Sequence record: SRR31156797_1175
Strand: one strand, 5' to 3'
Length of the DNA: 56,996 bases
Positions 5,196 through 39,499 of the stretch are shown here, one piece after another. Positions within the stretch are counted from its first letter, which is position 1, and each line of letters begins with the position of its first letter. The notes beneath the pieces were generated by a model that saw only the letters and a list, made by a program, of their open reading frames with translations, had not been told where the DNA came from and ran no database searches. A program made the translations under genes and the position numbers.

Positions 5196-5203
5196 TATCT
5201 TTG
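5196..5203 (+). promoter_or_regulatory. Putative sigma-A -7 element for the susC operon
   Basis: TATCTTTG matches TAnnTTTG, about 160 bp before the susC start and downstream of the operators. Confidence 0.55.
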
Positions 5204-8327: not shown

Positions 8328-8338
8328 AAAATCACAAA

Positions 8339-9952: not shown

Positions 9953-9971
9953 TAATTTAAATCCAATAAAA

Positions 9972-11009
9972 ATGAAAAAATACTATATATTTCTTTTTGC
10001 ATTAGTAAGTATGCTGGGCATTTTCACGAGTTGTGATGAAGATGGAGAGCAACTAGTAATGCGAGAAAACGTTATTGCTCCCTCAATAACATCAATGCCA
10101 GATTTGACATTGATTAGAGCAAATGGAGACAATGTGCTTACATTTGAATGTTCTCCTGTTGAAGTGGGATTTACAGCCTCGGCAACTTATTTTCTTGAAG
10201 CTGCTCCTACTGGAGATAACTTCCAAAATGTCACTCAAATTTATAGCGGATTTACATGTGACAATATTGAAATAACAGTAAGTGAATTAAATACTCTATT
10301 GTTAAACATTCTTCCTGCAGATCAAACATCATCTGCAGATTTTAGAATACGTTGTGTATTAGAGACGGATGCTGGTCTTGGAGTCGAAGAGTTTGAATAT
10401 TCCTCTGAGATCATCACGGCAGATGCTACTATTTTTGGTTTACTTCGTTTAGATGTAATTATTGCTGGAAAAGAAAATCAAAATATTAAATCTCCGGGAA
10501 GCAATGGAATTTATGAAGGTTTTGTAAAAATTGGTGCTGGTGAAGAATTTACTTTACTTGATCCAGATAACAATATTTCGTACGGTGCAGGTGGTTCTGG
10601 TCTTGCTGTTGATGGTTCTGCAATTACTGTAAATAACCCAGGTTGGCATATGGTCACAGCTGATGTTAATGCTTTAACATATACTGCAGAAGAATATTTC
10701 ATTGGACTTGTTGGTACTGCTACACCTAATAACTGGGATGCTCCTGATCAAAAAATGGACTATGATCCAGCAACTAAAACCTGGTCAATTACACTTGATT
10801 TAACCGATGGTGTCGTTAAATTTAGAAGAAATGACAGTTGGAGTTGGAATATGGGATTTGTAGAAGGAGAAACTACTGGATACACTGGAGCATTGCAACA
10901 AGGTGGAAATGGGAATGATATTCCTGTTCCTGGAGGTGCAGGTAACTACACAGTTATCTTTACAATCCTAAGTGACGAAGCTGGTACTTACGAATTTATT
11001 AAGAACTAA
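9972..11009 (+). CDS. SusE-like surface lipoprotein with C-terminal starch-binding module
   Basis: True start at ATG 9972 (MKKYYIF...FTSC lipobox). SusE-type N domain and SusE/F CBM motif GLVGTATPNNWD...VKFRRNDSWSWN. Confidence 0.82.
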   Translation: MKKYYIFLFALVSMLGIFTSCDEDGEQLVMRENVIAPSITSMPDLTLIRANGDNVLTFECSPVEVGFTASATYFLEAAPTGDNFQNVTQIYSGFTCDNIEITVSELNTLLLNILPADQTSSADFRIRCVLETDAGLGVEEFEYSSEIITADATIFGLLRLDVIIAGKENQNIKSPGSNGIYEGFVKIGAGEEFTLLDPDNNISYGAGGSGLAVDGSAITVNNPGWHMVTADVNALTYTAEEYFIGLVGTATPNNWDAPDQKMDYDPATKTWSITLDLTDGVVKFRRNDSWSWNMGFVEGETTGYTGALQQGGNGNDIPVPGGAGNYTVIFTILSDEAGTYEFIKN

Positions 11010-11029
11010 TTGTATTAGTTAAATAATAT

Positions 11030-11058
11030 AGTATTCTGCCTGCAAATGGCAGAATACT
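11030..11058. other. Intra-operon stem-loop between the susE-like and susF-like genes
   Basis: Perfect 11-bp stem AGTATTCTGCC-N7-GGCAGAATACT without a + strand U-tract. Confidence 0.7.
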
Positions 11059-11073
11059 TAAAAAAGATGAAGT

Positions 11074-12927: not shown

Positions 12928-12939
12928 ATCATACAATTT

Positions 12940-12970
12940 AAAAGAGCATACTTCGGTATGCTCTTTTTTT
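12940..12970 (+). terminator. Rho-independent terminator after the susF-like gene
   Basis: AAAAGAGCATAC-TTCG-GTATGCTCTTTT stem with a cUUCGg loop and a T-tract. Confidence 0.88.
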
Positions 12971-13018
12971 ACATACAACAAGCCAATTTAAAAGGATTCG
13001 ATCAATACAAAGCTAACT

Positions 13019-16000: not shown

Positions 16001-16708
16001 ACTGATTTAACTTACACTTTAACTGCTGACGATAGGAATAAGTTTATTCGTTTCTCAGTTGTTCCAGTTGCAGCAACTGGAGATCCTTCAAATGGCGAAA
16101 TTGTGTTTAGTATTTACACCGGTGAAATTGTGTCTTTGGTAAATAAACCACTTGCTAGCAATGTATCAATTAGTGGAATTTACCGTGAGGATGAAACCTT
16201 AACAGCAAACTACGATTATTCTGATATTGATGGCGATGTGGAAGGTAGCTCAATATATCAGTGGTATAGAGCTGATAATGCCAATGGTACCAACGAGGAA
16301 GCAATTACAGGAGCCACAGAATTGACTTATACCTTGGTTAGAGATGACAGAGGAAATTTTGTACGATTCTCAGTAATTCCTGTTGCTGCAAGCGGGGAAT
16401 TATTACAAGGAGATATTGCATATAGTTCTTACTCGGATGAAATTTCGTATTCCACAGGAATAGATGATGTTCTTAAGAAAGAACTAAGGCTTTATCCAAA
16501 CCCAGTGAGAGATATTCTTCATTTAGAGAATTTGAAAGATGTGAAAACTTTATACTTATTCAATACATCGGGCAAAGCAATTGTATCTGTAAATATGCCT
16601 AATGCGTCCACAGAATTAAATTTGGGGAATTTGGCTAGCGGCGTTTACCTATTGATTTTTGAATTGGAAGATGGTTCCAAATTGAGTAAAAAAATCATAA
16701 AACAGTAA
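13019..16708 (+). CDS. T9SS-secreted GH13 alpha-glucan hydrolase with CBM48-like domain, three Ig-like repeats and T9SS CTD
   Basis: YELHVRDF, SWGYNP, MDMVLNH, catalytic motifs DGFRFD / FEHL / ESHDEE; C-terminal LYPNPVRD...LASGVYLL...KKIIKQ type-A sorting signal. Confidence 0.92.
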   Translation: MKNFYTYILSLLLLVPVITKAQITTVPEFPNANSEITITFDSSQDSRLGTFTGELYAHTGVMIEGNADWQHVIGSWGDNTAQPQLTNNNDGTYTLVITPNITDFYSVTTGEVVTQIAAVFRSADGSQQSNDLFIDIYQEGLNVSFSSPTDNKMIAKNEELQVEIKSNISESLSLYLDGDLIENTTTEQEINTSIQSNISGNHELIAVATSGSEEARETIHFYVREDVIVEDMPTGVIEGINYIDDNTVTLAMYAPKKDFAFVIGDFTNWEVDNAYQMKKDEDYFWITIDNLTAGQEYVFQYIIDGDVKIADPYADKVLDPWNDQYIDDSTYPGLIDYPSDKTTEIASVLQTGQTAFNWTDSQFTMPASDDLVIYELHVRDFVATGNIKTVTDTLDYLDRLGVNVIELMPFNEFEGNDSWGYNPSFYFAPDKAYGTKEDYKTFINECHKRGIAVFMDMVLNHTYGQSPFLRMYFDGTNPTADNPWYNENHNFENTDAHWGYDINHESEATQKLVDRINAYWMNEYHIDGFRFDFTKGFSNKNHPNSGSDVWGSDYDADRIRLLKRMADEIWKVNSDAIVSFEHLSDNTEETELANYGIHLWGNANGNYNEATMGYHENNKSDLSWTSWKQRGWNAPRVVNYMESHDEERLMYKNLQYGNSSGDYDVTDLNTALSRIETAAAFFFTIPGPKMIWQFGELGYDFSIEENGRVGKKPIRWDYQDNANRKRLYDVFSALIKLKKEEIAFESDDFVLATSQALKRIEINHSDMNVRIIGNFDVIAGEINPNFSETGSWYDYFTGKEITVSNPTEKIALEPGEYHIYTNKQLTTPNIPAAPIANNVVINGTFKELETLTASYDYSDINNDLEGSSILQWYRADDSNGTNEESITGATQLTYTLAAADRNKYIRFSVTPVAATGEPASGEIVFSNYTDKIVSIVNPPVASNLVISGTEREDEILTASYDYSDIDGDLEGNSTYQWYRADDASGTNEETIAGATDLTYTLTADDRNKFIRFSVVPVAATGDPSNGEIVFSIYTGEIVSLVNKPLASNVSISGIYREDETLTANYDYSDIDGDVEGSSIYQWYRADNANGTNEEAITGATELTYTLVRDDRGNFVRFSVIPVAASGELLQGDIAYSSYSDEISYSTGIDDVLKKELRLYPNPVRDILHLENLKDVKTLYLFNTSGKAIVSVNMPNASTELNLGNLASGVYLLIFELEDGSKLSKKIIKQ
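15514..16450 (+). repeat. Three 315-bp (105-aa) intragenic repeats encoding Ig-like (AIR9-like) domains
   Basis: TACGATTA(C/T)TC(C/T)GAT recurs at 15581, 15896 and 16211 (period 315). Peptide consensus LTAxYDYSDIxxDxEGxSxxQWYRAD..GATxLTYTL...DRxxxxRFSVxPVA. Boundaries are approximate. Confidence 0.9.
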
Positions 16709-16738: not shown

Positions 16739-16777
16739 AAAATCCCGCAAGTCATAACTGGCTTACGGGATTTTTTT
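16739..16777. terminator. Bidirectional terminator between convergent genes
   Basis: AAAATCCCGCAAGTCA / TGGCTTACGGGATTTT imperfect stem with a T-run. Confidence 0.75.
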
Positions 16778-18221
16778 ATTTTATTTCCAACTCCAATCTA
16801 TAACGTATTTCTGAATCACCTGGCTGCATTATCAACTGATAATTCCCAGGAATTAATGGATCATCAGGCATCGAAATCTTAAATACAAAAGGAGAATCTC
16901 CATAGCTTCCAATCTGTTCCCGAACCAAATTCTCCTTAGCATCGATTATCTTAAGATTAAGCTCCTTATTAAAAAACTGCATCAGATGAAATTGCACAAA
17001 TACATTTTCCGATTCTGAATAATAGTAGTCCTGATCTGCCCCCATAAACTCTTCTCTCTCCTGCTTATTGTTTTCGTTAAGGTCAATAAATCCGGTGAAA
17101 AAGAAAAATCCTTCTTGCCCTTTTTTAAAGTTTGGAGCCATATTATCTACATTTTCGCTTACCCCCATAGCCATTTTAGGAACTTCTGGTAAGGAATCTG
17201 TCACTACAACCAATTCTGGTTCCGAATCAGCACTATCTTCCATTTCCGGGTCAGAAATTAAATTTTTAATAGTATCATTTACCTGAACCAACAATCGGTA
17301 TTGCTTAGGAGTTTCCTGCCCTAAGGATGCTGTTATCATATATTCACCTGCTGGTGCTTCTTTCAATATCCTTAAAAATTCATTTCCCTTACTCAAAGTA
17401 TCTCTATTCATTGTATAATGCTGCAAACTATCCATTTTCGAAATGTTCATAGCAATGAGATCATATTTTGAATTCCATATCTGATAAACAACTTCCTGAT
17501 TGCTCATAGGTAAATTTAATCCTATCTGAAAGTTTACATTTCCCAAATCAAATTGATACTGATTTAACCCTAAAACTTCAGTACTATCCATTTTCATATC
17601 TCCATCTTCATCTATCCATTCTTCAAACAGATGAAAACTCTCTGGCAGAAGTTTCTTTCTTATTTTTAAGAAAGCTTTTCCATTGGGTTCTTTTAATGAA
17701 AAGTTTATTTGGTAAGTTTCGGCATTATTTTCAGGATTTATAGTTAATATGTAATCGCCTACTGGTAGAAACGAATCGAAATTTGAATAAGAAAACATAG
17801 GATTGCTTGTATAAATCTTTCTAATGGTTCTAATAAGATTACCACCAGTATCCCAAATTCTCAATTTTAAACTTGTTCCTTCTTTTATTTTAGGATCGTA
17901 TAAAGTTGCGCTAATGGATTCTCCTTTAGAGAATGACTCTTTGCCTAAACCAAAAAATTCATTTCGCTCTACAATTTCATTTTCATTCAAATCAACCCAT
18001 TTATTATAGGCAAACAATCCTATGGGAATATCATTCTTTTTTTGAATAATTTCAGATTCCACATTAAACACTTGTTGATCTTCTATCTTTTCTTTTTTCT
18101 CTGTTATTGGAGGATCATTTGTAGCCTGTTCCTGACTATACGAAATTATAACACTGAAGAAAAAAATGGCAAGTGCCAACAAACACCTGCCAAAAATACT
18201 TTTGAATATTCTTTGTATCAT
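16776..18221 (-). CDS. Secreted hypothetical protein with three repeated domains, each containing an EF-hand-like loop
   Basis: N-terminal signal peptide and loops DLNENEIVERNE, DEDGDMKMDSTE, DLNENNKQEREE; each repeat ends in an Ig-like PxGxYxL strand. Confidence 0.75.
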   Translation of the reverse strand: MIQRIFKSIFGRCLLALAIFFFSVIISYSQEQATNDPPITEKKEKIEDQQVFNVESEIIQKKNDIPIGLFAYNKWVDLNENEIVERNEFFGLGKESFSKGESISATLYDPKIKEGTSLKLRIWDTGGNLIRTIRKIYTSNPMFSYSNFDSFLPVGDYILTINPENNAETYQINFSLKEPNGKAFLKIRKKLLPESFHLFEEWIDEDGDMKMDSTEVLGLNQYQFDLGNVNFQIGLNLPMSNQEVVYQIWNSKYDLIAMNISKMDSLQHYTMNRDTLSKGNEFLRILKEAPAGEYMITASLGQETPKQYRLLVQVNDTIKNLISDPEMEDSADSEPELVVVTDSLPEVPKMAMGVSENVDNMAPNFKKGQEGFFFFTGFIDLNENNKQEREEFMGADQDYYYSESENVFVQFHLMQFFNKELNLKIIDAKENLVREQIGSYGDSPFVFKISMPDDPLIPGNYQLIMQPGDSEIRYRLELEIK

Positions 18222-24666: not shown

Positions 24667-27099
24667 ATGAAAATACTATCTCAAAAAAACAAGTGGGCTA
24701 CGATTAATATTATTGGTATAGCTATTGCGTTTGCTGCTATTTTATTGGTAAGCACCTACACCATACACGAATCGTCTTTTGACAAATTTCATACGAAGGC
24801 AGATAACATCTACCGATTAAACATAGATAAACCGGGAAGAGTAGGATTTATGGAAACTGCGGATAATCTTCAAACAGCTTCCTTGAATGGTTATTACATA
24901 TCGAGTTTATACGATCGATTCCCCGAAATAAAAGATGTAACCTTACTAACAAAAACATACAATTTAAGCTTAAAAGTAGGAGCTGAAACATATAATATTG
25001 AAAAATCGTTTTACACAGATCATTCCTTTTTTAACCTTTTCGATTTTGATCTTCTGCAGGGAAATAAAAATGACCTTTTTAAAAATACAAATGAAATTGT
25101 TTTAAGTAAAAAAGCCGCGTTTAAATATTTTGGCGATACTAATATTGTTGGCAAGGAAGTAAAAATAAAATCGGAATATGATAATAATGATGGAACAAGC
25201 TATACCGTAAAAGCTGTTTTTGATGATTTCCCGTCCAATTCTCATATGACCTTCAATTTACTTATTTCAGAGAAAACAGAAAACCTGCAAAGTCCATATG
25301 GAGCTGCTTTTACTTATTTACTTCTGCAAAAAGAAAGTAATCCAATTCAACTAGCAGATGCTTTAAATCTGTATTGGGAAAAAAATGTAAAAGAGAGTGA
25401 ATTAGCGCCAACATTCAAATTAATGAATCTAAAAGATATTCATTTAAAAAGCCACATGAGAGATGAACTGGGATCAAATGGAAATTTGAATTCCATTATA
25501 GTTCTGGTTATTGGAGCATTAATAGTATTTCTAATCGCCATTGTAAATTATTCAAATTTAAATTTTGTACAGTTTACTACCAATCTAAAGGATTCAAAAA
25601 TCAAAATTATTAATGGAGCTTCGCTTCTGAATTTGTCAACAAATCAATTTGTTGTATCTCTTTTTCATACTTGCATCGCTATTGTCGTTGGAACTTTAAT
25701 TGCTATAAATTTTGATAATATTTCTAATTTTAATCTGCAATTTATTTTTTCTGTAAAACTCTTTTTATGTGTATCAATTTTTTTCGCAATTCTTTTTGGT
25801 TTCATTGCTCTGCTGCCTCTTTACACAAAAAATATATCAAATAATTTAAGTAAAACTCCTGATCAGGGATCCAAAAAATTTATCATTTCACTTGTGTTCC
25901 AATTTGTATTGTCAATATCAGCAATAATACTTACCATAGTATTACACAAGCAAATTGATTACATCCAAAAAACACATCCAGGAGAAGATAAAGAATCCAT
26001 ATTAACCATTAGCAATTTTCCATATGAGGCTATAGCTAAATTTGATTTGTTAAAAGAAAAAGTGCAACAACACTCCGAAATTGAATATTTAAGTGCCACA
26101 TTCATGCCACCTGGAATCTTTCCTGATTTCGAGCACTCGTTCGAAATGGAAGGAATTGAAAATAGCAAGGAGAATAGAATCATGATTAATTCAGTAGAAA
26201 AAGATTTCTTCAAGCTATTCAATATTCAAGCCTTAGCAGGAAATTTAGAATTACAGAATGGATCAGATTATACCTGGGAATGCAAGGCAATAACACCTAA
26301 TGGCGCGATTGCCCTTAAGAATTTAGAAAAACTCGATCCAATCCACAAAAATTTTAAGGAGCAATACATCTTAAATGAATCAGCAGTTAAAAAACTAGGA
26401 TTTAATAATCCCGAAGATGTTATTGGAAGACAATTTCAATATCATTTTCGCGCTCCTCAATATTTTAAAAAGGGTGAAATTGTAGCTGTAATTAAGGATT
26501 TACACTATGCTGATCTTTTTTCAAAAGAATTACCAATGGTGATTGGTCTTAAACGAATTTTTAATGGAACTTTTCTGGTGAAAATTGATAAAAACAAAAA
26601 GGCTCAGGCAATCGAGAAACTAAATAAAGAATGGAATCAGCTACTTCCTGATTCGCCAATGAAATATAAATTTCTTGATGATATTTATGCCGAAATATAC
26701 AAAAACCAATATAAGGAAATGAGAGCACTTACACTATTCGCTATTCTTTCCATATTATTATCAATTTTGGGAATGTTTGCATTATCATCCTACAGCATCC
26801 AGCACAAAACCAAAGAAATTGGAATTAGAAAAGCAAATGGAGCTAGTTCGTTGGAAATTATGATACAATTAATTAGCGAATATGCAATTTGGGTTGCGCT
26901 GGCATTTATTATCGCATGTCCGCTAGCCTATTATGCTGCGGAAGATTGGTTACAACACTTTGCTTACAAAACAGAATTGTCATGGTGGATATTTGCACTT
27001 GCCGGTATAATTGCCTTGATCATTGCAATTATTGCGGTAAGCTGGCAAACCTGGAATGCGGCAAGAAAGGATCCGATTTATGCTCTTAAGTACGAATAA
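24667..27099 (+). CDS. FtsX/MacB-like ABC permease (duplicated Bacteroidota type)
   Basis: SFDKFH, two large periplasmic domains, KTKEIGIRKANGAS, WLQHFAYK, AARKDPIYALKYE. Confidence 0.9.
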   Translation: MKILSQKNKWATINIIGIAIAFAAILLVSTYTIHESSFDKFHTKADNIYRLNIDKPGRVGFMETADNLQTASLNGYYISSLYDRFPEIKDVTLLTKTYNLSLKVGAETYNIEKSFYTDHSFFNLFDFDLLQGNKNDLFKNTNEIVLSKKAAFKYFGDTNIVGKEVKIKSEYDNNDGTSYTVKAVFDDFPSNSHMTFNLLISEKTENLQSPYGAAFTYLLLQKESNPIQLADALNLYWEKNVKESELAPTFKLMNLKDIHLKSHMRDELGSNGNLNSIIVLVIGALIVFLIAIVNYSNLNFVQFTTNLKDSKIKIINGASLLNLSTNQFVVSLFHTCIAIVVGTLIAINFDNISNFNLQFIFSVKLFLCVSIFFAILFGFIALLPLYTKNISNNLSKTPDQGSKKFIISLVFQFVLSISAIILTIVLHKQIDYIQKTHPGEDKESILTISNFPYEAIAKFDLLKEKVQQHSEIEYLSATFMPPGIFPDFEHSFEMEGIENSKENRIMINSVEKDFFKLFNIQALAGNLELQNGSDYTWECKAITPNGAIALKNLEKLDPIHKNFKEQYILNESAVKKLGFNNPEDVIGRQFQYHFRAPQYFKKGEIVAVIKDLHYADLFSKELPMVIGLKRIFNGTFLVKIDKNKKAQAIEKLNKEWNQLLPDSPMKYKFLDDIYAEIYKNQYKEMRALTLFAILSILLSILGMFALSSYSIQHKTKEIGIRKANGASSLEIMIQLISEYAIWVALAFIIACPLAYYAAEDWLQHFAYKTELSWWIFALAGIIALIIAIIAVSWQTWNAARKDPIYALKYE

Positions 27100-27160
27100 T
27101 AAATACACAGACTTGAATCGTGGGAACTTGTTTCCTGAAAAACCGTAATTCGGTTTAATT

Positions 27161-27201
27161 AAAGTCCGGACTACCTTAAAAAATTGTCCGGATTTTTTTT
27201 T
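27161..27201 (+). terminator. Terminator of the ABC operon
   Basis: AAAGTCCGGAC...GTCCGGATTTTTTTTT stem plus T-tract. Confidence 0.7.
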
Positions 27202-27234
27202 CTCAGATCAAGAGTTTTGCGCTAAATTTTATTC

Positions 27235-27267
27235 AAAAAAAGTGCCACTCCGAGGAGCAGCACTTTT
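27235..27267 (-). terminator. Terminator of the tandem carboxyltransferase gene
   Basis: AAAAGTGC..CTCC-ga-GGAG..GCACTTTT stem preceded by an A-run (U-tract on the - strand). Confidence 0.7.
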
Positions 27268-27297
27268 AGATTGCGTGTAAAATATATAGAGAAAACT

Positions 27298-30200
27298 TTA
27301 CCCTACTAATCTGCTTTTAGGCTTTTGAGCCGCAAGCATTTCTTTTGTTTTGATGTCAAGCTTTGATTCTTTTTCCTCTGGCTGATTAATTTCTCCTGTT
27401 GCCTGAGTAGAATCTCCTCCCATACTATACAATCCCTTAAGCATCATAGCTTCTTTCTCTTCTGCAGGAATTGCTTTGTAAGCAGCTTTCTTTTCGTCAA
27501 TTATTCTTTGTTTTTCAGCTTCTTCAGCATTAACTTTTTCGTAGTAAGCATCGGCTTTTCTGTTTTTCAAGAATGGACCTGCAACGGTTGGGAACAATTC
27601 CAACAATAACATTTCTTTCTCGTTTTCAGCTAATTTAACCCCACCAAATTCATCTAACACAGGATTCTCTGGTGATTGATATTTGCTTACATCAAAATCA
27701 GTTGCTTCACTTTGTCCACAAATTTTATGACGGTATTCAGGATCGATATCAATTGGCGTTTCGCCGTACTCCCCTTTTACAAGGTTAAAAAACTGGTTAT
27801 TTACGTTGGTATATGGAACCTTACCGCTGTTCACATCCAATACATAGTTTACTGCCTGAACACCTACAATTTGAGATGATGGAGTTACCAATGGAGGACA
27901 ACCTGCAGCAACACGTACTTCAGGTACTTTTTCCAATACAGTTGGCAATAAATCTTCCAATCCCAGAGCTTTCAACTGAGCCAACATATTAGTGTACATT
28001 CCACCTGGAATCTCGGCAGCTTTTACCTCTTCGTTTGGTGCCGGGAAGTTGAAGAACTTATCAATAGCGTTACAAACGTCTAATAATTCTTCTTCCTTAT
28101 CAGCTTTAGCTAATTCAATAGCTTTATCGAATAATGCATCAATCTCTTTTGGAAGATAATCAGCAGTAATATCAAATTCTAATGGGAACATTTTGTAAGA
28201 ATCGAATTCTGCAATTCTCTGACGAATTCCCTTTAACTCTTTGTTGATTTCAACAACAGCCTCCAGATTCACACCTGTATCCAAACCTAACTTATCAGCA
28301 AAAATCTGAATGATTTCAAATGCCGGAGCAGCTGGACCACCTGCAAAATTTAAAATGTTGGTATCAACAATATCAACTCCGTTTACTATTGCCATTAAAA
28401 CAGCACCTAAACCATAACCTGGAGTACAGTGAGTATGAAAATCAATAGGAAGATCAATCTCTTTCTTCAAGCGACTAATAATCTTACCAGATAATGACGG
28501 AGGAATCAATCCAGCCATATCCTTTACGGTAATCATATCAGCTCCCATAGTTTCCATTTGTTTCGCTTTATTCACAAAATAGTCAACATCAAAGATCTTC
28601 TTAGGCAGTTTCTTACCTCCTAAAAGAGCTTTCCATCTTTGCTTTCTTGTGAACTTAGGATCTACGGTATAACAAACAGCACAGTCAGCAATACCACCTG
28701 CCTCTTTCATATATTTAATGGTAGTTTCCATGTTCTTCACATCGTTCAGACAGTCGAAGATACGCATGATACCCAAACCAGATTTCACAGCATTTTTATT
28801 GAATCCTTCAATTACCGTCTCTGGATATGGAGAGTATCCAAACAAGTTCCTTCCACGAGACAGAGCTGTTAGATGAGAAACATCACCAATCACTTCTTTA
28901 ATAGACTCTAAACGGTGCCATGGATCCTCGTTTAAGTAACGCATTACAGAATCAGGAATTGCTCCACCCCAAACTTCCATTGCATAGAAATTAGCATCCT
29001 TATATAAAGGAAGTACCTTTTCAATCTCAGCCTGTGGAACACGAGTAGCAAATAATGATTGCTGCCCATCACGAAGGGTGAGGTCACGAATCTTTAATTT
29101 ACCCGTACGTCTGATTGCAGCTCTTTCAGCAGCAATTTTCTTACGATTAACTTCTCTTTGCGCTTCGAATTCTACTTTACGTTTTCCTTCTAAGTAGCCT
29201 TTAGCTACCAATGGAAAAAGCTCTAACAACATGAATTCTTTATCATCCTTAGCCAATTTTACATTTCCGAACTGTGGCAATGTTGGATTCTCAGGAGATA
29301 CATAAGCATTTACATCATACTCTACTTTTTCAGCTTTACCTGTAATTTTCTCACGGAATTCAGGAGCAATCTCAATTGGAGTTGTTCCATATTCCCCTTT
29401 TACAAGGTTAAAGAACTGGTTAGATACGTTAGTATAGAACGGACGACCAGAGTTCTCATCGATTACACAGTTTACAGCCTGTACACCTACAATTTGAGAA
29501 GAAGGGGTTACCAATGGCGGACAACCTGCGTCCAAACGAACCACTGGTACCACTTCTAACACTCTCTCAAGCAGGGTTTCCAAACCTAAAGCTTTCAACT
29601 GGTTTAGCATGTTAGTGTACATACCTCCAGGGATTTCCGCATTCTTAACCATTTCGTTAGGAGCTGGGAAATTAAAATATTCCTCAATAGCATGACAAGC
29701 TTTCAACAATTCTTCCTCGTTGTCTACTTTTGCATGCTTGATTGCCACATCGAATAACTCATCGATATCTGCTGGCAATTTATCTTTTGTAATATCAAAT
29801 TCTATTGGGAATTGCTTGTAGCTATCTACATCAGCTAAAGCATTCGTACGAATCTCTTTTAGAATTTTATTTATCTCTACAACAGTCTTAGCATCACCAT
29901 CTAATTCGATTCCTAATTTCTGGCAGAACAGATAAACCAATTCATATGCCGGAGCTGCTGAGCCACCTGCGAAGTTCATGATATTTGTATCGATAATATC
30001 AACACCATTAACAATTGCAGAAAGAGCCGAAGCCAAACCATATCCAGGTGTAGAATGTGAATGGAAATCTACAGGAATATTTAATTCTTCTTTAAATTTA
30101 CGGATGATTTTACCGGCTAGCGAAGGTGAAGCCAATCCAGCCATATCTTTTAGTGAAATCATATCAGCACCCAAAGCTTCAAGCTTTTTCGCCATGTTCA

Positions 30201-30738
30201 CAAAATAATCAAGATCAAAAATCTGATCAGGAAGATCTTTAATTGTTAATCTTTCAAGATCTTCTTTTTTAGTAGGAAATTTAGAATCTACAGTAAAACA
30301 GACAGCACAATCAGCTAAACCTCCAGCTTCTTTAACGTACTTAATGGTAGATTTCATATTTTCGATATCATTCAAACAGTCGAAAATACGCATGATACCC
30401 AAACCCGATTTAACCGCCTGAGTATTGAAATTTTTAATTACTGTTTCAGGATAAGGACTGTAACCAAATAGATTTCGTCCACGAGATAAGGCGGTAAGTT
30501 TGGAAACATCGCCAATCACCTCTTTAATGGACTCTAAACGATACCAAGGATCCTCGTTCAAATAACGCATAACAGAATCAGGTACTGCTCCACCCCACAC
30601 TTCCATAGCATAAAAGTTTGCTTTCTTATACAAGTACAATACTTTCTCGATCTCTGCCTGCGGCATTCTGGTTGCAAAAAGAGATTGCTGTCCATCTCTT
30701 AATGTTAGATCCCTTACTAATAGTTTCCTTTTTTTCAT
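27298..30738 (-). CDS. Tandem-duplicated pyruvate/oxaloacetate carboxyltransferase (2x OadA/PycB/5S-type CT domain) lacking a biotinyl domain
   Basis: RDLTLRDGQQSLFATR, EVWGGA, KDMAG, DFHxHxT, IPGGMYTNM and PPLVTPSSQIVG each occur twice; the junction is near 29097. No (A)MKM motif. Start taken as ATG 30738 (MKKRK). Confidence 0.9.
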   Translation of the reverse strand: MKKRKLLVRDLTLRDGQQSLFATRMPQAEIEKVLYLYKKANFYAMEVWGGAVPDSVMRYLNEDPWYRLESIKEVIGDVSKLTALSRGRNLFGYSPYPETVIKNFNTQAVKSGLGIMRIFDCLNDIENMKSTIKYVKEAGGLADCAVCFTVDSKFPTKKEDLERLTIKDLPDQIFDLDYFVNMAKKLEALGADMISLKDMAGLASPSLAGKIIRKFKEELNIPVDFHSHSTPGYGLASALSAIVNGVDIIDTNIMNFAGGSAAPAYELVYLFCQKLGIELDGDAKTVVEINKILKEIRTNALADVDSYKQFPIEFDITKDKLPADIDELFDVAIKHAKVDNEEELLKACHAIEEYFNFPAPNEMVKNAEIPGGMYTNMLNQLKALGLETLLERVLEVVPVVRLDAGCPPLVTPSSQIVGVQAVNCVIDENSGRPFYTNVSNQFFNLVKGEYGTTPIEIAPEFREKITGKAEKVEYDVNAYVSPENPTLPQFGNVKLAKDDKEFMLLELFPLVAKGYLEGKRKVEFEAQREVNRKKIAAERAAIRRTGKLKIRDLTLRDGQQSLFATRVPQAEIEKVLPLYKDANFYAMEVWGGAIPDSVMRYLNEDPWHRLESIKEVIGDVSHLTALSRGRNLFGYSPYPETVIEGFNKNAVKSGLGIMRIFDCLNDVKNMETTIKYMKEAGGIADCAVCYTVDPKFTRKQRWKALLGGKKLPKKIFDVDYFVNKAKQMETMGADMITVKDMAGLIPPSLSGKIISRLKKEIDLPIDFHTHCTPGYGLGAVLMAIVNGVDIVDTNILNFAGGPAAPAFEIIQIFADKLGLDTGVNLEAVVEINKELKGIRQRIAEFDSYKMFPLEFDITADYLPKEIDALFDKAIELAKADKEEELLDVCNAIDKFFNFPAPNEEVKAAEIPGGMYTNMLAQLKALGLEDLLPTVLEKVPEVRVAAGCPPLVTPSSQIVGVQAVNYVLDVNSGKVPYTNVNNQFFNLVKGEYGETPIDIDPEYRHKICGQSEATDFDVSKYQSPENPVLDEFGGVKLAENEKEMLLLELFPTVAGPFLKNRKADAYYEKVNAEEAEKQRIIDEKKAAYKAIPAEEKEAMMLKGLYSMGGDSTQATGEINQPEEKESKLDIKTKEMLAAQKPKSRLVG

Positions 30739-31368
30739 ACCCTGACTTATTAAATATTTTAAATCGATATCACTCGAGAGAGTTCTTTTTTTGGAATCAA
30801 ATCTGGTTGATGATTGTTTCCGGATCAAAAATAAAAACTATTTTTCATTAAGGAAATATTTCTTCATTATAAGCTTCGAATTCCACAATATCCAAGATAA
30901 TGAGTATAAACACCCACTTAAATTAATGATTTTATTCTTTAATAATATCGTTTTCATTTCGCAATCGATAGCAAAAAATACAATCTAAAGATTGCAAAAT
31001 GTAAAAATCTCACTGAATTCGGGACAATGGTGAGATCCTTATAGGTTTATACCATAATTAACCGATAAGACCTACTGTTAACTTAAAATAGGGGTAAAAC
31101 ACCCATTCTTATTTTTTTCAATTTCAAAAACTGCTAAACAACATATCTATCTTCCACTTTTGTAGCAAGAGAATTTCATTTAAAGCTATTTTTATATGGG
31201 AAATTTTAATCTCAAATCCACTAAATTAAATCTAAAGTTCAGTTTTGCTCAATCTCCTATTCATTTCCTAAAAAGATGCTTACTTTTGCCCTGTTAGATA
31301 TTGAATCAATAAAAACCGCATTTGCTCTTATTTCTACAAAATGAGTTCAAAGCACTAAATAGCAGGTC

Positions 31369-32205
31369 GTGAGTATAATCGGACAATACGCAGAATTAAA
31401 AGTTGCCAAACTAGTTGATTTCGGAGTTTTTCTGGAAGGTGAAGATGAAGCATTAATATTGCTTCCAAATCAATATGTTCCAGCCAAAACACAAATTGAT
31501 GACACTATTAAAGTCTTTATTTATCGTGATTCTGAAGATAGAATTATTGCAACAACACTGACTCCAAAAGCTATTGCTGGAGAATTTGCGGTTATGAAAG
31601 TAAAATCAGTAACCAATATTGGTGCCTTTTTGGATTGGGGTTTAGCCAAAGATCTTTTGGTACCTTTTAGTGAGCAAAGAGATAAATTGCAAGAAGGACT
31701 ATCCTACCTGGTTTTCGTTTACATTGATGAATCAACGGGAAGAATTGTTGCAACAGCTAAAATTGAAAAAATCCTTAAAGATGTTGAGTTATCATATAGT
31801 GAAGGTGATGAAGTAGATATTTTAGTTGGGAAGAAAGGGGATTTAGGTTTTCAGGTATTGATTAATGATGATGCACTAGGAATTATCTACAAAAATGAAA
31901 TTTTCGGTCACTTAAAAACCGGAGATAAAAGAAAAGCTTACATTAAAAAACTGAGACCTGACGGAAAAATTGATATTAGTCTTCAACAACAAGGATATCA
32001 GAATGAAGTACCAAAATCAGGACAACAGATCTTAGATATGCTTAAGGAAGAAGAAGGTTTTCTTCCCTTGAATGATAAAAGTTCCCCTGAAGATATTCAC
32101 TATTTGCTTAAAATGAGCAAAAAGAATTTTAAGAAAGCCATTGGTCTTTTATACAAGCAAAAACTAATTACAATTGAAGATGCCGGAATTTATCTGGTTC
32201 AATAA
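31369..32205 (+). CDS. cvfB: CvfB/YitL-family S1 RNA-binding protein
   Basis: VFIYRDSEDR, GAFLDWGLAKDLLVPFSEQ, C-terminal DKSSPE...MSKKNFKKAIGLLYK; GTG start. Confidence 0.9.
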   Translation: MSIIGQYAELKVAKLVDFGVFLEGEDEALILLPNQYVPAKTQIDDTIKVFIYRDSEDRIIATTLTPKAIAGEFAVMKVKSVTNIGAFLDWGLAKDLLVPFSEQRDKLQEGLSYLVFVYIDESTGRIVATAKIEKILKDVELSYSEGDEVDILVGKKGDLGFQVLINDDALGIIYKNEIFGHLKTGDKRKAYIKKLRPDGKIDISLQQQGYQNEVPKSGQQILDMLKEEEGFLPLNDKSSPEDIHYLLKMSKKNFKKAIGLLYKQKLITIEDAGIYLVQ

Positions 32206-33982: not shown

Positions 33983-34237
33983 ATGAAGAAAGGTATTATT
34001 ATTGGCGGTGGAATTGCCGGGTTAACAGCTGCTATAACAATGGAACAAGCCGGTTTAGATTTTACTGTATACGAAGCAGCACCTGAACTAAAACCTTATG
34101 GAGCTGGTATTTGGATGGCACCTAATGCCATGCAGGTATTCGATAGAATTGGTGTTAAGAATGCCGTTTTAAATGCTGGTATTGAATTGGAAAGAGTAGA
34201 TATGGAGAACTGTTTAAAGTTATTTCTCCAAGGGTAA
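33983..34237 (+). pseudogene. Truncated FAD-dependent monooxygenase (N-terminal ~70 aa only)
   Basis: IIGGGIAGL Rossmann motif, VYEAAPELKPYGAGIWMAPNAMQV. Such enzymes are normally about 380 aa; similarity stops near 34200. Confidence 0.85.
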
Positions 34238-34427: not shown

Positions 34428-36458
34428 ATGACATCTAAACTTAAAAATACTTTAAATAAAAGCATTGCCCCAAAAGATATCTCTAACCGATTCTTTTTTT
34501 CATTGCTTCTTATCATTTTGATATTTACAACCGTCTTTGTTTACACGTATAAAAAAAATACAGACAAATTAAATCAAGATCATTTACAACAAAGTAAGGA
34601 ACAAATTATTCAGGCTAAAAAAGATTACCTAAAAGCAGTTGTTGACAGAACCATTTCTGAAATTGAGTTAATTGAAAAAATGCATCTTCAGCTGAACAAC
34701 AATCCCGATGAATCCACTTATAAGCTAATTAAAGAACAAGCCAAGGCATTTATTCGAAACACCATACTACAAGATTCTGGCTACATTTGGGTGGATGAAG
34801 TCATCAATTACAATGAAGGAGACAAATTTGCCATAAGAATGGTTCACCCTAATCTTCCAGAAACCGAAGGCGACACTATATCTACCTCTACCAAAGACAT
34901 CAAGGGAAATACTTTTTATCTAACTGAATTAGAAGGTGTAAAACGATACGGAGAATTATACTTTTCATATTGGTTTAAACATTTTGGCAGTAATAAAATT
35001 TCCAAAAAACTCTCTTATGCCAAATTGTATAAAAAATACAACTGGATTATAGCTTCAGGTGTTTATTTAGATGATGTTGATGAATTTATAGCCAGCGAAA
35101 CAAGTAAAAGTGTACTAATAACCAGCGAACACAATAAGCTAGCCGTTATAATTGCACTAACAACTATTTTGCTATCAATAATTAGCGCTCTGTTTTATCG
35201 CAAAAGAATCACCAACATATTAAGGTTCTATATGAATCAAGTACATGAGCGAGAAAATGCCTTGAAAGAAATAAATTTGTCTTTGGAAAATATCGTGGAA
35301 GAAAGGTCTAGGCAACTTTCCGAAAGCGAAAAGAGATATCAGGTAATTTTTAGAAACAATCAATCAATTATGATGTTACTAAATCCATCAAACGGTGACA
35401 TTTTAGATGCAAATGATGCGGCCTTAAATTTTTATGGCTATTCTTTGGATGAAATTACCTCAATAAATATAAGTAAAATTAACACTTTAAGTAAAAAGGA
35501 AGTTGAACTGGCAATACACGAAACCAATAAATCCGGGTCCAAGTATTTTTTATTTAAACATCGCCTTTCGAACGGAGAAATAAAAGATGTAGAAGTATAC
35601 ACAGAGAGAATGACAATAAATAGTAAAGAGGTATTTTTCTCAATCATTCATGATATTTCTAAATTGCGCAAAACCCAGCAGGAATTAATAATTGCAAAGA
35701 AAAAAGCTGAAGAAAGTGACCAATTAAAAACCGCTTTTTTAGCCAATATGAGTCATGAAATTCGTTCCCCTTTAAATTCTATTTTAGGATTTACTGATTT
35801 ACTGTCCGGATCAAATATTAGCATCGATCAAAAATCACGATTCACACAAATTATAAATAACTCAGGAGAACAACTCATGAGAATTATTGATGATATTATT
35901 GATATTTCGCACATTGAATCAAATCAGCTCACCTTATCAATTTCTTCAATTTCCATTAACAATAGCTTAGAAGAAATAGTCACCGGATTTAAAAACTCCA
36001 GGATGACATCAAAGAATAAAAACATTGATTTAAATTTGCAAATACCTAATAACAAAATTGATTATAAAATTAAAACAGATGAAGTAAGATTTACTCAAAT
36101 TTGTAATAACTTATTGAACAATGCATACAAATTTACCGAAAAGGGATCTATTGAAATTGGATATACTCTTGGTGATTCATCACAAAATAAATATCTAAAT
36201 TTCTATGTTAAAGATACCGGACTTGGTATCCCTAAAAATAAATTCAATTTAATTTTCGATCGTTTTTCTCAAGTTTCGCATAATGATTATCGAGAAGGAA
36301 ATGGTCTCGGACTAAGTATTACAAAAGGCTTGGTACAGCTGTTAGGTGGTGAAATAAATGTAGAATCGACCTTAGGTAAAGGCACAACTTTTTATTTCAC
36401 CATTCCAATAACCTACAAAAGCCAAAAACAAGAAAAAGTTGATTCTGATTATGTCTAG
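34428..36458 (+). CDS. Cache-PAS membrane sensor histidine kinase
   Basis: TM, single Cache domain (GYIW...MVHPN...KKLSYAKLY..NWIIASGVYLDD), TM, PAS, FLANMSHEIRSPLN and G boxes. Confidence 0.92.
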   Translation: MTSKLKNTLNKSIAPKDISNRFFFSLLLIILIFTTVFVYTYKKNTDKLNQDHLQQSKEQIIQAKKDYLKAVVDRTISEIELIEKMHLQLNNNPDESTYKLIKEQAKAFIRNTILQDSGYIWVDEVINYNEGDKFAIRMVHPNLPETEGDTISTSTKDIKGNTFYLTELEGVKRYGELYFSYWFKHFGSNKISKKLSYAKLYKKYNWIIASGVYLDDVDEFIASETSKSVLITSEHNKLAVIIALTTILLSIISALFYRKRITNILRFYMNQVHERENALKEINLSLENIVEERSRQLSESEKRYQVIFRNNQSIMMLLNPSNGDILDANDAALNFYGYSLDEITSINISKINTLSKKEVELAIHETNKSGSKYFLFKHRLSNGEIKDVEVYTERMTINSKEVFFSIIHDISKLRKTQQELIIAKKKAEESDQLKTAFLANMSHEIRSPLNSILGFTDLLSGSNISIDQKSRFTQIINNSGEQLMRIIDDIIDISHIESNQLTLSISSISINNSLEEIVTGFKNSRMTSKNKNIDLNLQIPNNKIDYKIKTDEVRFTQICNNLLNNAYKFTEKGSIEIGYTLGDSSQNKYLNFYVKDTGLGIPKNKFNLIFDRFSQVSHNDYREGNGLGLSITKGLVQLLGGEINVESTLGKGTTFYFTIPITYKSQKQEKVDSDYV

Positions 36459-38092
36459 TTCTTGCGTTCAAGCTCCTTTAAGTTTTCCATCTTTTTAATT
36501 GATAGATATGAATTAATATCACCAAGGTGCTCTTTCACTTTTTTGTTACCAAACTCATATACCTTTTCAACCAAACCATCAAGAAAATCTCTATCATGAG
36601 AAACGACTATTATTGTTCCATCAAAATCTTTTAAAGCTGATTTTAAGATATCTTTGGTTTTCATATCCAAGTGATTCGTAGGCTCATCCAGAATCAATAA
36701 ATTAACTGGTTCCAAAAGAAGTTTAATCATTGCCAATCTGGTTTTCTCTCCTCCAGATAAAACTTTCACTTTTTTAGTTGAGTTATCACCTCCAAACATA
36801 AAAGCACCTAGTAAATCCTTAATTTTAGTTCGGATATCTCCTATTGCCACATGATCAATGGTTTGAAAAACAGTTAAATCTTCATCCATTAATGATGCTT
36901 GATTTTGAGCGAAATAACCAATCATACTATTGTGACCCAAAGTAAGTGTTCCACCATGATCAATTTCCTGCATGATGGCTTTAACTAAAGTCGATTTTCC
37001 TTCACCATTTCTTCCAACAAAGGCAATTTTCTCTCCTCTTTCAAGCGTTAAGTTCACATTCTCGAAAACAAGATGATCTCCATAATTTTTAGAGACATCA
37101 TCCATTACAACCGGATAATTACCTGAACGAGGCGATGGTGGAAATTTTAATCGAAGTGCTGATGTATCTTCTTCATCAACCTCAATTATATCAAGTTTAT
37201 CTAACATTTTAACTCTAGACTGTACTTGTAAAGTTTTAGAATATGTTCCTTTAAACCGTTCAATAAACGCTCTATTCTCAGCAATCATCTTTTGTTGCTC
37301 ATCGTAAGCTTTTTGCTGGTGAACTCTTCTATCTTTTCTCAACTCCAAATATTCAGAATAAGATGCTTTATAGTCGTAAATTCGCCCCATTGTAATTTCA
37401 ACAGTACGAGAGGTAATATTATCAACAAATGCACGGTCGTGAGAAATTACCATCACAGCTTTTCCTGAATTGATCAGAAAATCCTCTAACCACTGAATGG
37501 ATTCAATATCCAAGTGATTTGTTGGCTCATCCAATAAAATTAAATCAGGTTTTTGTAACAGAATTTTAGCCAATTCAATTCTCATTCTCCATCCACCACT
37601 AAACTCATTGGTTGGTCGAGTAAAATCTTCACGCATAAAACCCAAACCAAAAAGGGCTTTTTCCACTTCAGCATCATAATTAATCTCCTCAATAGAGTAA
37701 AAATTTTCACTCAAAGCAGAAACATCTTCAATCAACTTGTAGTAACTTTCCGATTCAAAATCAGTTCGAGATGCCAATTGTGCATTCAACTCCTCAATTT
37801 GCTTTTCCATATCAAAAATATGGGCAAAAGCCTGAGCTGTCTCCTCAAATACTGTTCTTGTATTTGAAGTTATCAGATGTTGTGGCAAATAAGCAATGGT
37901 TTTATCTTTAGGAACTGAAACTCTACCTCTTGACGGAGTATCAACACCAGCTATTATTTTTAACAAGGTTGATTTACCAGCACCATTCTTACCCATTAGG
38001 GCAATACGGTCCTTTTCATTAATAACAAAGGAAATATCTTTAAATAGAGTTGTTCCACCAAACTCAACAGCTAATGCATCTACGCTAATCAT
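36455..38092 (-). CDS. ABC-F family ATPase (ribosome-associated)
   Basis: Two NBDs (GKNGAGKST, GRNGEGKST), FSGGWRMR, LDEPTNHLD twice, no TM. Start moved to ATG 38092; a TATCTTTG -7 element lies at 38114-38121 on the - strand. Confidence 0.94.
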   Translation of the reverse strand: MISVDALAVEFGGTTLFKDISFVINEKDRIALMGKNGAGKSTLLKIIAGVDTPSRGRVSVPKDKTIAYLPQHLITSNTRTVFEETAQAFAHIFDMEKQIEELNAQLASRTDFESESYYKLIEDVSALSENFYSIEEINYDAEVEKALFGLGFMREDFTRPTNEFSGGWRMRIELAKILLQKPDLILLDEPTNHLDIESIQWLEDFLINSGKAVMVISHDRAFVDNITSRTVEITMGRIYDYKASYSEYLELRKDRRVHQQKAYDEQQKMIAENRAFIERFKGTYSKTLQVQSRVKMLDKLDIIEVDEEDTSALRLKFPPSPRSGNYPVVMDDVSKNYGDHLVFENVNLTLERGEKIAFVGRNGEGKSTLVKAIMQEIDHGGTLTLGHNSMIGYFAQNQASLMDEDLTVFQTIDHVAIGDIRTKIKDLLGAFMFGGDNSTKKVKVLSGGEKTRLAMIKLLLEPVNLLILDEPTNHLDMKTKDILKSALKDFDGTIIVVSHDRDFLDGLVEKVYEFGNKKVKEHLGDINSYLSIKKMENLKELERKN

Positions 38093-38200
38093 CTTTTCAA
38101 TTTTATTAAGCCGCAAAGATAATTACTTTATACAATTCCTAAAGAACGAAAGTCGTTTACGTAAATTTTTAATTGTTTTCTATTTAAGATCCTCAAGAAT

Positions 38201-39499
38201 TTAAGCATTAATTTTATTGTTTTTGAGATGTTCAACCACCCATTTGTTGGTAACACTTTTAGGTCTAATAATAGGCTGACCTAATCCCTGTGCAAGAATA
38301 TTTTGTGCACAAAATCCTAATACTCGTGAAACACCAAATAGAACAGTGTAATAATCAAACTGATCTATTCCAAACTTATAGAGGAGTGATCCAGAAGCGG
38401 CATCAACATTTGGATATGGATTTGCAACTTTTCCACCATTATAAGTTTTAAGAATATCAGGTGAAACCGCAAAGAGCATTTTTGCAATTTTAAAACAATA
38501 GTTCTCCTGACAATATTCGTCACCAAATTTCATAAATGCTGTAAAACGTGGATCCGTAACTCTTAAAACAGCATGTCCATATCCTGGAATCACTTTTCCA
38601 GAATCAAGAGTTTTCAAGACAAAATTCTTCACATTATCCAATGTAACCGCAACACCATACCTCTCATGAATTTTCAAAATAAACTTTAAACACTCCTGAT
38701 TGGCCAAACCATGCAGCGGACCAGCCAAACCATTCAATCCTGCAGAAATTGCATAATACAAATCCGATAAGGCGGAATTTACCACACGTGAAGTAAAAGC
38801 ACTTACATTCCCTCCCTCATGATCACAGTGAAGAACCAGGTACAATCGAATTAGTTTAGCAAATTTTTCATCCGTACCGGAGATTCCCAACATATTTGCA
38901 AGATTTCCTGCCCAATCTAAATTAGGGTTGTGTGGAATTAACTCGCCATCTCCAAATCGGATTCTATATATTCCAGCAGCCAGTTCAGGTAATTTAGCGA
39001 CTACATTCAATGCATCTTCCAATGTATATTCCCAATATTTAGTCTTTGCTATTCCTTTCTGATATTCGCGTTTAAAAATCGATTCATTCTCCATTGACAA
39101 GATTCCTAAACTTAACATCGTCATAGGATGTGTGTCTTTAGGAAGAGTCCTAAGAACATCCCAAGTATACTCAGGTACTCCTGTTCGTTTATTAAGTTCA
39201 ATCCTAAACTCATCTAAAAAATCGCTTTCGGGAAATTTCCCCGTACATAATAGGAAAAAGATCTCTTCGGGGTAACGAGATGAAAAATCTTCTGTTGTGT
39301 ATTCTCCAATATGCAAACCTGAATATGGATCAACATAGGAAGTATTACAGACTAAAGCTGTTAACCCTCTCATTCCACCATAAACCTGACCTACTGTCAC
39401 TTCAGATAAAACCGCACTTTTGCCCTGTGCAAAAATGGAATCTATTTCGTTTTGTAAATTATTTAGATTTAATCGTATTTCTTCTTTTAAAATGGACAT
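38201..39499 (-). CDS. gltA: Citrate (Si)-synthase, eukaryotic/mitochondrial type
   Basis: YGGMRG, HCDHEGGNVSA, GLNGLAGPLHGLANQE, PGYGHAVLRVTDPR, NPYPNVDAASG, YYTVLFGVSR. Confidence 0.92.
   Translation of the reverse strand: MSILKEEIRLNLNNLQNEIDSIFAQGKSAVLSEVTVGQVYGGMRGLTALVCNTSYVDPYSGLHIGEYTTEDFSSRYPEEIFFLLCTGKFPESDFLDEFRIELNKRTGVPEYTWDVLRTLPKDTHPMTMLSLGILSMENESIFKREYQKGIAKTKYWEYTLEDALNVVAKLPELAAGIYRIRFGDGELIPHNPNLDWAGNLANMLGISGTDEKFAKLIRLYLVLHCDHEGGNVSAFTSRVVNSALSDLYYAISAGLNGLAGPLHGLANQECLKFILKIHERYGVAVTLDNVKNFVLKTLDSGKVIPGYGHAVLRVTDPRFTAFMKFGDEYCQENYCFKIAKMLFAVSPDILKTYNGGKVANPYPNVDAASGSLLYKFGIDQFDYYTVLFGVSRVLGFCAQNILAQGLGQPIIRPKSVTNKWVVEHLKNNKINA

Follow-up and report, generated by a model that had tools for sequence, protein, structure and literature searches.

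Two carboxyltransferase units in a single carrier-less chain: a putative covalent pseudo-dimer of the pyruvate carboxylase/OadA/5S type

A double carboxyltransferase gene

The stretch of DNA analyzed here (56,996 nucleotides of sequence record SRR31156797_1175, referred to below as the window) carries on its minus strand, at 27298..30738, a gene for a protein of 1146 amino acids in which two carboxyltransferase (CT) units of the type found in pyruvate carboxylase, OadA and transcarboxylase 5S follow one another. The open reading frame (ORF) spans 27298..30828 when counted from its first TTG, with the stop codon at 27298-27300; translation from the ATG at 30738 yields the 1146 residues and an N-terminus, MKKRKLLVRDLTLRDGQQS, that is also that of all full-length homologs. 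On the evidence of Pfam, of motifs and of an alignment of one half against the other, copy A comprises residues 1-519 (29182..30738) and consists of a TIM-barrel CT domain followed by a PYC_OADA domain, and copy B, the second CT and PYC_OADA unit, comprises residues 546-1061 (27556..29103). Between them lies a charged linker of residues 520-545, RKVEFEAQREVNRKKIAAERAAIRRT (29104..29181), and copy B is followed by a C-terminal tail of residues 1062-1146 (27301..27555), within which a conserved motif, YKAIPAEEKEAMMLKGLY, is encoded at 27427-27480; all of these parts are read from the minus strand. Pfam finds HMGL-like (PF00682, 102.8 bits against a cut-off of 29) and PYC_OADA (PF02436, 225.4 bits against a cut-off of 27), each in two stretches, so that both domains of this type of CT are present, in order and above their gathering scores. 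Biotin_lipoyl (PF00364) was not found by Pfam in the 1146-residue protein, nor does the protein contain an MKM motif.

The metal and substrate site of CTs is formed by the Arg-Asp of RDxxQS, the Lys of KDMAG (a carbamyl-Lys), the HxH pair and the Thr of VTPxSQ, and we located every one of these elements in both halves. RDGQQS begins at residues 14 and 556 (30682-30699 in copy A and 29056-29073 in copy B), KDMAG at 197 and 739 (30136-30150 and 28510-28524), HSH at 226 and its counterpart HTH at 768 (30055-30063 and 28429-28437), and LVTP at 409 and 950, with the threonines being Thr411 and Thr952 (29506-29508 and 27883-27885). The motifs of both halves align with those of the solved PycB (5ks8) and OadA (2nx9). 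In an alignment of 47 full-length proteins, made up of the window protein and 46 of the 49 clusters described below (P0009, P0022 and P0050 were omitted), the Asp, Lys, HxH and Thr positions are invariant or at least 90% conserved in either half.

The two halves (residues 1-547 and 548-1146) share 372 of 540 amino acids (69% identity). At the DNA level they are 68.5% identical over aligned codons, the codon differs at 173 of 373 identical residues, and the best direct repeats between them, 111-300 nt long and spaced 1623-1626 nt apart, reach only 74-79% identity; these values refute a recent duplication or an assembly echo. Across 222 columns that are at least 90% conserved in 43 carrier-less single relatives, the conserved residue is kept at 218 in copy A and at 221 in copy B. 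Fixed differences between A and B copies are limited to six columns (three B-like A copies being left out), none of which is a known metal or substrate ligand, and at five of the six it is copy B that holds the state of the single-unit proteins, which is the ancestral one, making copy A the slightly more derived half. Six pairwise comparisons put the dN/dS ratio at 0.027-0.059 in copy A and at 0.023-0.055 in copy B, with dS partly saturated. The comparison shows both halves to be complete and constrained like active single-domain orthologs. Because the conserved columns are kept and fixed A-B differences are so few, neither half appears to be a decayed pseudo-enzyme and there is no sign that the two act on different substrates. 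A degenerate pseudo-enzyme half is ruled out by the retained columns together with the low dN/dS.

A probable intrinsic terminator, consisting of a hairpin (arms at 27238-27251 and 27254-27267) and a T-run, is found at 27231..27267 on the minus strand, about 30 nt past the stop codon. The hairpin is missing from the list returned by our consensus scan for sigma-70 promoters and terminators, a scan that performed no better than on shuffled sequence. Upstream, 95 nt from the ATG, TATTTTTG (30826..30833, minus strand) matches TAnnTTTG, the Bacteroidetes-type -7 promoter consensus, and is a tentative candidate for a promoter element; it is the one such element in the 630-nt intergenic region (30739-31368) between the CT gene and a divergent CvfB-like gene. 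Rfam, run over 26900-31500, gave zero families at gathering score, the lone match being a small RNA at chance level (E 0.27). The gene is flanked by a convergent ABC exporter pair on one side and, on the other, by the divergent CvfB-like S1-domain gene and a C69 dipeptidase. An initial annotation of this DNA, made from the letters alone, had described two intact CT units without a carrier domain, catalytic motifs in both copies and no MKM, a charged linker peptide, a terminator of the gene's own and a divergence too large for a recent duplication or an assembly echo, and our analysis agrees with it on all of these points.

Conservation and rarity of the fusion

The same architecture is encoded elsewhere. 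Among 5.8 billion clustered proteins, our search listed carrier-less, two-unit proteins in 49 clusters (1005-1160 amino acids, 64-96% identical), with names that include Ancylomarina, Marinifilaceae, Tenuifilaceae and Bacteroidales metagenome-assembled genomes (MAGs). A scan of genomes, whose locus counts are lower bounds throughout, returned at least 75 loci, of which at least seven carry the fused double gene, isolates included: Labilibaculum sp. K2S (92% identity), two Ancylomarina, two Marinifilaceae MAGs, Perlabentimonas gracilis and Bacteroidales UBA2295. The closeness of the K2S gene indicates that the window most likely derives from a Labilibaculum. The junction is open, with no stop codon, in all eight genes (the seven loci and the window), which stem from independent assemblies, and junction and linker are conserved across the 47 aligned proteins. 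For three Ancylomarina entries (P0051-P0053) the public annotation calls only the last 644-646 amino acids, starting from an internal Met, as a 'carboxylase'. P0051 is 100% identical to residues 504-1147 of P0007, a protein of 1147 amino acids from the same species, and is therefore merely a shorter gene call; other Ancylomarina records carry the full 1147 amino acids under the name 'hypothetical protein'.

The fusion is also rare. A HMMER search against 1.84 billion representatives, one per cluster of 50% identity, recovered one full double form, P0032 (1115 amino acids, matched over residues 4-1104), whose Atlas entry lists generic CT clusters only. The other proteins longer than 985 amino acids among the best 150 HMMER matches have one CT unit, which in most of them lies some 435-880 residues into the chain, as it does in full-length pyruvate carboxylases. 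We did not find a doubled CT of the pyruvate carboxylase/OadA/5S type described in the open-access papers and bioRxiv preprints that we searched. These results indicate that two CT units in one chain without a carrier are almost certainly a real, conserved and rare architecture, one that belongs to a single narrow clade.

Origin of the double form

The genome scan further returned at least 58 loci (L008-L065) at which members of the same subfamily occur, all of them as single CTs. Compared with the solved structures, these proteins share with the window protein the RDGQQS motif, an insert of about 20 amino acids in the barrel and another of about 50 amino acids before PYC_OADA; they also contain the sequence patterns on which the genome scan was based. 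At 49 of the 58 loci the protein has no biotinyl domain and measures 541-619 amino acids when complete, several being cut by contig ends; at the remaining nine, from Alistipes/Rikenellaceae (L041, L044, L045, L048-L052 and L059, e.g. L045:9989-12106), it ends in two biotinyl domains. The window protein belongs to a large, unnamed subfamily of pyruvate carboxylase/OadA/5S-type CTs of the FCB group (Bacteroidota/Ignavibacteriota).

We placed copies A and B among single-domain homologs, a tree that had been suggested in the initial annotation, using FastTree (239 rows) and IQ-TREE in quick mode (55 and 66 rows). All A and B copies fall into one clade amid the carrier-less Bacteroidales singles, with SH-aLRT support of 93 in the 55-row tree and 96 in the 66-row tree. 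Within it the A copies form one clade, comprising 15 of 17 in the smaller tree and 21 of 21 in the larger; the A copies of P0028 and P0035 sit in the B clade in the 55-row tree, and their placement is unstable between trees. The same sub-groups (Marinifilaceae, Tenuifilaceae-like and P0030/31) recur in the A and B parts. Because the A and B sub-trees are parallel and because A-B identity amounts to 57-72% in every lineage, the pattern fits a single old duplication-fusion that would have taken place before Marinifilaceae and Tenuifilaceae split. Several independent duplications are ruled out by the 66-row tree, in which all 21 A copies form one clade.

The C-terminal tail

In the carrier-less singles and in copy B, the last helix of the CT fold (LLELFP.VA) is followed by a charged helix and then by a conserved motif that reads approximately Y..LS.EEK..RL..GLYN and corresponds to residues 1087-1104 of the window protein. 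Copy A has retained the start of this tail, which now serves as the 26-residue charged linker, and lacks the motif itself. BCCP-bearing relatives, that is those with a biotin carboxyl carrier protein domain, have a Pro/Ala linker and one or more biotinyl domains in place of the motif. The motif pattern was scored in 133 of 150 carrier-less singles and in 38 of 55 doubles, but in none of 49 BCCP-bearing proteins. Of the listed misses that were inspected by eye, the majority go back to failures of the anchor or the pattern, and 51 more sequences are unscored. The motif is also present in the single CTs that are linked in operons to a 12S-like gene. The tail has no sequence relative in the PDB. 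Since tail motif and fused BCCP are mutually exclusive, this distribution suggests that the tail may do non-covalently what the fused BCCP does covalently, namely bring the carrier to the active sites.

Partner genes of the relatives

Transcarboxylase is composed of 5S, 12S and 1.3S subunits. At five Ignavibacteria-type loci (L031, L033, L034, L064 and L065) a single CT of the subfamily has a 519-amino-acid Carboxyl_trans protein (12S/MmdA-like) directly downstream, and at the three where the contig is long enough (L033, L064 and L065) this is followed by a 79-amino-acid ORF and then by a Biotin_lipoyl protein of 146 amino acids; OAD_beta is absent from these three loci. The gene set at the three loci is that of a transcarboxylase-like operon with 5S, 12S and 1.3S components. 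Copy B is 62% identical to an operon-linked Ignavibacteria single CT over 561 amino acids and is colinear with it through the tail. At two further loci, L014 and L016, a full cluster of mmdA, small ORF, BCCP and OAD_beta lies 5-9 kb from the CT gene.

More distant relatives from Lachnospiraceae (33-36% identical; L066-L071, L073 and L075, e.g. L067:6284-11410) are encoded in operons that combine an MmdA-like Carboxyl_trans protein, a small BCCP, OAD_beta and a carrier-less OadA-like CT; one of these relatives exceeds the OadA equivalog cut-off. Two different carboxyltransferases would here share one carrier and one pump, and the Lachnospiraceae operons therefore provide a precedent for a shared carrier. 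The neighborhoods of the seven double loci differ between genera.

The initial annotation had treated the missing carrier and partners as a special property of the window gene. This is overstated: to be without a carrier and without adjacent partners is the rule in the subfamily (49 of 58 single loci), and transcarboxylase 5S is the classical example of a carrier-less CT. Its suggestion of a carrier borrowed in trans is favored by the relatives, with five loci encoding a 12S-like CT and three a free BCCP.

Function of the double carboxyltransferase

The CT domains of 5S, OadA and pyruvate carboxylase form homodimers. We propose, with a confidence only somewhat better than even for the whole chain of inference, that the window gene encodes a tandem-duplicated and fused pyruvate/oxaloacetate CT acting as a covalent 5S-like pseudo-dimer with a carrier supplied in trans. 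The covalent pseudo-heterodimer suggested in the initial annotation is a plausible arrangement. The two halves would pack as an intramolecular version of the usual homodimer, CO2 would be exchanged between oxaloacetate or pyruvate and the biotin of a free MmdC/1.3S-like carrier encoded elsewhere, and the lone C-terminal tail, present on copy B only, may recruit the carrier-bearing partner. The carboxybiotin could then be passed to a 12S/MmdA-like methylmalonyl-CoA CT; as part of succinate/propionate fermentation in the Marinifilaceae host, this would give a transcarboxylase-like reaction, methylmalonyl-CoA + pyruvate <-> propionyl-CoA + oxaloacetate. Alternatively, it could be handed to a Na+-pumping beta subunit, resulting in oxaloacetate decarboxylase activity; the evidence favors neither of these two fates. 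Formation of oxaloacetate from pyruvate by such a transfer would suit cells that grow on pyruvate or lactate and produce succinate and propionate.

The metabolism described for this group is consistent with a role of this kind. The products that Labilibaculum forms by fermenting sugars, pyruvate, lactate and glycerol are formate, acetate, succinate and some propionate, the latter 'likely via the methylmalonyl-CoA pathway' (PMC5760507), and mmdAC and pccB are reported from most Marinifilaceae genomes, with high expression in situ (PMC9765461). Xylanibacter has its mmd genes divided between two loci, mmdA-small ORF-mmdC and oadG-mmdC-mmdB, and the textbook view given for this organism is that of a decarboxylase 'rather than transcarboxylase' (PMC11575231). 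A metabolic model of Bacteroidia lists oadA/oadB (PMC11238397).

It is possible, though on balance doubtful, that the carrier-less CT subfamily as a whole, in its single and its doubled form alike, supplies the '5S' missing from a transcarboxylase of the Bacteroidota type. The tail of these proteins would dock onto the MmdA/MmdC module, and one carrier would serve the methylmalonyl-CoA CT, the Na+ pump and the pyruvate/oxaloacetate CT as its three catalytic partners. In the doubled form, two active sites would share a single docking tail, so that this covalent dimer would be obligately asymmetric. If true, this would revise the usual statement, made in the Xylanibacter paper, that such bacteria use a decarboxylase only and not a transcarboxylase (PMC11575231).

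Several observations weigh against a 5S-like enzyme that works with a carrier in trans. None of Biotin_lipoyl, biotin carboxylase, OAD_beta, OAD_gamma and Carboxyl_trans was found in the window, where the scan covered 38 of the 44 ORFs of at least 100 amino acids and the remaining six overlap longer ORFs, and biotin-related genes are absent near the double CT at seven of seven double loci, in agreement with the initial annotation, which had noted no partner genes nearby. Linkage to a 12S-like gene was seen at only five of the 49 carrier-less single loci (three of the five with a BCCP as well). Nine carrier-less single loci (L010-L012, L017-L019, L027, L053 and L061) adjoin instead a gene for an aldehyde:ferredoxin oxidoreductase of 719 amino acids (AFOR_N and AFOR_C), 0-285 bp from the CT gene and downstream of it where checked (e.g. 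L012:11937-14096). When a Prolixibacteraceae BCCP was used as query, none of the 120 matches listed was named Marinifilaceae, a result that is uninformative on mmdA/mmdC in the host. Both halves have Gln in RDGQQS where the solved enzymes have His (RDGHQS/RDAHQS). The whole protein matches the NCBIfam models of PycB, OadA, 5S and pyruvate carboxylase and stays below every equivalog cut-off: 283.1 (copy A), 296.6 (copy B) and 570.9 (whole protein) against 827 for 5S (NF008984) and, for the two halves, 340-361 against 756.5 (TIGR01108) and 351-366 against 718 (NF008985) for OadA, and 344-357 against 734 for PycB (NF010644). Finally, five complete singles of 567-580 amino acids (P0391, P0392, P0394, P0396 and P0397), 83-85% identical to copy B and 71-72% to copy A, nest with starred support inside the Marinifilaceae B clade; either copy A may have been lost secondarily in one lineage, or a B-type paralog may exist.

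Three other functions have to be considered. The protein may be the CT part of a two-part, ATP-dependent pyruvate carboxylase (PycB-like), which would work with a separate biotin carboxylase and carrier in anaplerotic synthesis of oxaloacetate. PycB is its top match in the PDB (5ks8_C, E 2e-76), the PycB 'domain' model NF006761 is the only NCBIfam model near its cut-off (388 and 403 against 402), and a citrate synthase, which consumes oxaloacetate, is encoded 8 kb away. We nevertheless consider this function unlikely: biotin carboxylase was not found in the window or at 65 inspected loci of the subfamily, known PycB has a BCCP of its own and the window protein has none, the scores are below the PycB equivalog cut-offs, and the operon-linked relatives are paired with a 12S-like CT instead of a biotin carboxylase.

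Isolated CT domains of pyruvate carboxylase slowly decarboxylate oxaloacetate without biotin, and the absence of both a carrier domain and an adjacent carrier gene, together with the monocistronic layout, would likewise suit a soluble, biotin-independent oxaloacetate decarboxylase, or another divalent-metal 2-oxoacid lyase or decarboxylase, that has abandoned the carrier. Against this, the LVTP threonine (T411 and T952), the residue by which pyruvate carboxylase shuttles a proton between the enolate of pyruvate and biotin, never varies in either half, close relatives are co-encoded with a free BCCP, and in a sister lineage the same CT has become fused to one or two BCCP domains. Because of these three observations, the invariant Thr, the co-encoded BCCP and the BCCP fusions, the comparison points to biotin-dependent chemistry throughout the subfamily. 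The initial annotation had raised decarboxylation of oxaloacetate without biotin; we found no positive evidence for it and regard it as improbable.

It had also proposed that the two sites differ in specificity, which would make the protein a pseudo-heterodimer for transcarboxylation from one keto acid to another. The halves are indeed just 57-72% identical in each lineage, A and B have been distinct lineages since before the split of Marinifilaceae and Tenuifilaceae, and copy A is slightly more derived, B being ancestral at five of the six fixed differences. Those six columns are the only ones fixed between A and B and include no known metal or substrate ligand, however, and nearly all columns conserved in the single relatives are kept in both halves, with A departing at 4 of 222 and B at 1 of 222, so that the proposal fares poorly and two specificities seem quite improbable. 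An artifact, whether a misassembled tandem repeat or a read-through of two genes, could draw on the RefSeq-type Ancylomarina annotation that covers the last 644 amino acids only ('carboxylase'), and it has next to no probability left given that P0051 is a shorter call of the P0007 gene, that eight independent assemblies are open across the junction, that junction and linker are kept in 47 proteins, that the DNA repeats are just 74-79% identical and that both halves are under purifying selection.

To call this gene the best candidate for an undescribed system, as the initial annotation did, is too strong. Fold and chemistry are textbook. The doubled chain represents a natural experiment in which an obligate homodimer would have become a covalent pseudo-dimer, and its two sites could be mutated separately, which is impossible in symmetric homodimers. 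It also draws attention to a carrier-less CT subfamily that is very common in Bacteroidales, gut and rumen lineages included, and that curated models leave unnamed. The role of this subfamily decides whether, in the formation of propionate and succinate, carboxyl groups are recycled through transcarboxylation or spent on a Na+ gradient.

Other genes in the window

The citrate (Si)-synthase mentioned above (38201-39499, minus strand, about 8 kb from the CT gene) is of the eukaryote-like type (NF007128, 488 against a cut-off of 344) and consumes oxaloacetate. At 36455-38116 on the same strand is an ABC-F protein that scores above the 'ribosomal protection-like ABC-F' cut-off (452 against 380). 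An ORF of 84 amino acids at 33983-34237 (plus strand) has matches to flavin monooxygenases in their N-terminal, FAD-binding part alone; ORFs of at least 25 amino acids provide no continuation in any frame, so that it is probably a gene remnant. The first part of the window, 1-16708, is a starch/maltose utilization locus with a GH65 phosphorylase, a HAD-family hydrolase, an MFS transporter, a LacI regulator, genes of the SusC, SusD, SusE and SusF-like types and a 1229-amino-acid alpha-amylase that ends in a T9SS sorting tail; as called, the ORFs of the SusD and SusE-like proteins overlap by 134 nt. The ORF of 481 amino acids at 16776-18221 (minus strand) belongs to no NCBIfam or Pfam family at the thresholds used.

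Comparison with known systems

The Na+-pumping oxaloacetate decarboxylase has OadA as its alpha subunit, a protein that includes an association domain and a BCCP and is encoded with oadB/oadG. The window protein shares the CT fold and motifs of the Vibrio cholerae enzyme (PDB 2nx9, E 1e-72), but has neither an association domain nor a BCCP, and neither OAD_beta nor OAD_gamma was found in the window. PycB of the two-subunit pyruvate carboxylase has a C-terminal BCCP and a biotin carboxylase subunit as its partner. The protein from Methylobacillus flagellatus (5ks8 chain C) is the best match among solved structures (E 2e-76), with colinear CT and PYC_OADA domains, whereas the window protein is without a BCCP and neither the window nor the inspected loci encode a biotin carboxylase.

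The nearest relatives are the carrier-less singles of Bacteroidales and Ignavibacteria (561-590 amino acids, 61-85% identity; e.g. L065, L016, L008 and P0391), which have the same inserts, RDGQQS, tail motif and lack of a BCCP. They possess one unit, while the window protein consists of two diverged, fused copies with a single tail. The CT of Alistipes/Rikenellaceae (702-711 amino acids, 59-61% identical) is of the same subfamily, but in it a Pro/Ala linker and two Biotin_lipoyl domains, with an MKM in each, replace the tail motif.

Transcarboxylase 5S is a carrier-less CT composed of a TIM barrel and a C-terminal domain that acts on pyruvate/oxaloacetate with a separate small biotinyl subunit. 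The window protein matches the Propionibacterium subunit in sequence (PDB 1rqb, E 7e-66) and shares RD..QS, KDMAG, HxH and VTPxSQ with it. It has no fused biotinyl domain; a separate carrier is seen only in relatives, whose operons encode a small BCCP together with a 12S-like CT, and, at family level, in what is reported of mmdAC in Marinifilaceae (PMC9765461). It differs from 5S in having two CT units per chain, a tail motif and Gln for His in RDGQQS, in the insert of about 20 amino acids in the barrel and the additional 50 or so before PYC_OADA that each unit contains, and in that 12S and 1.3S genes are unlinked at the double loci (the window and seven of seven). Our best reading is that the protein probably works like a 5S subunit, although by curated models it is no member of the 5S family.

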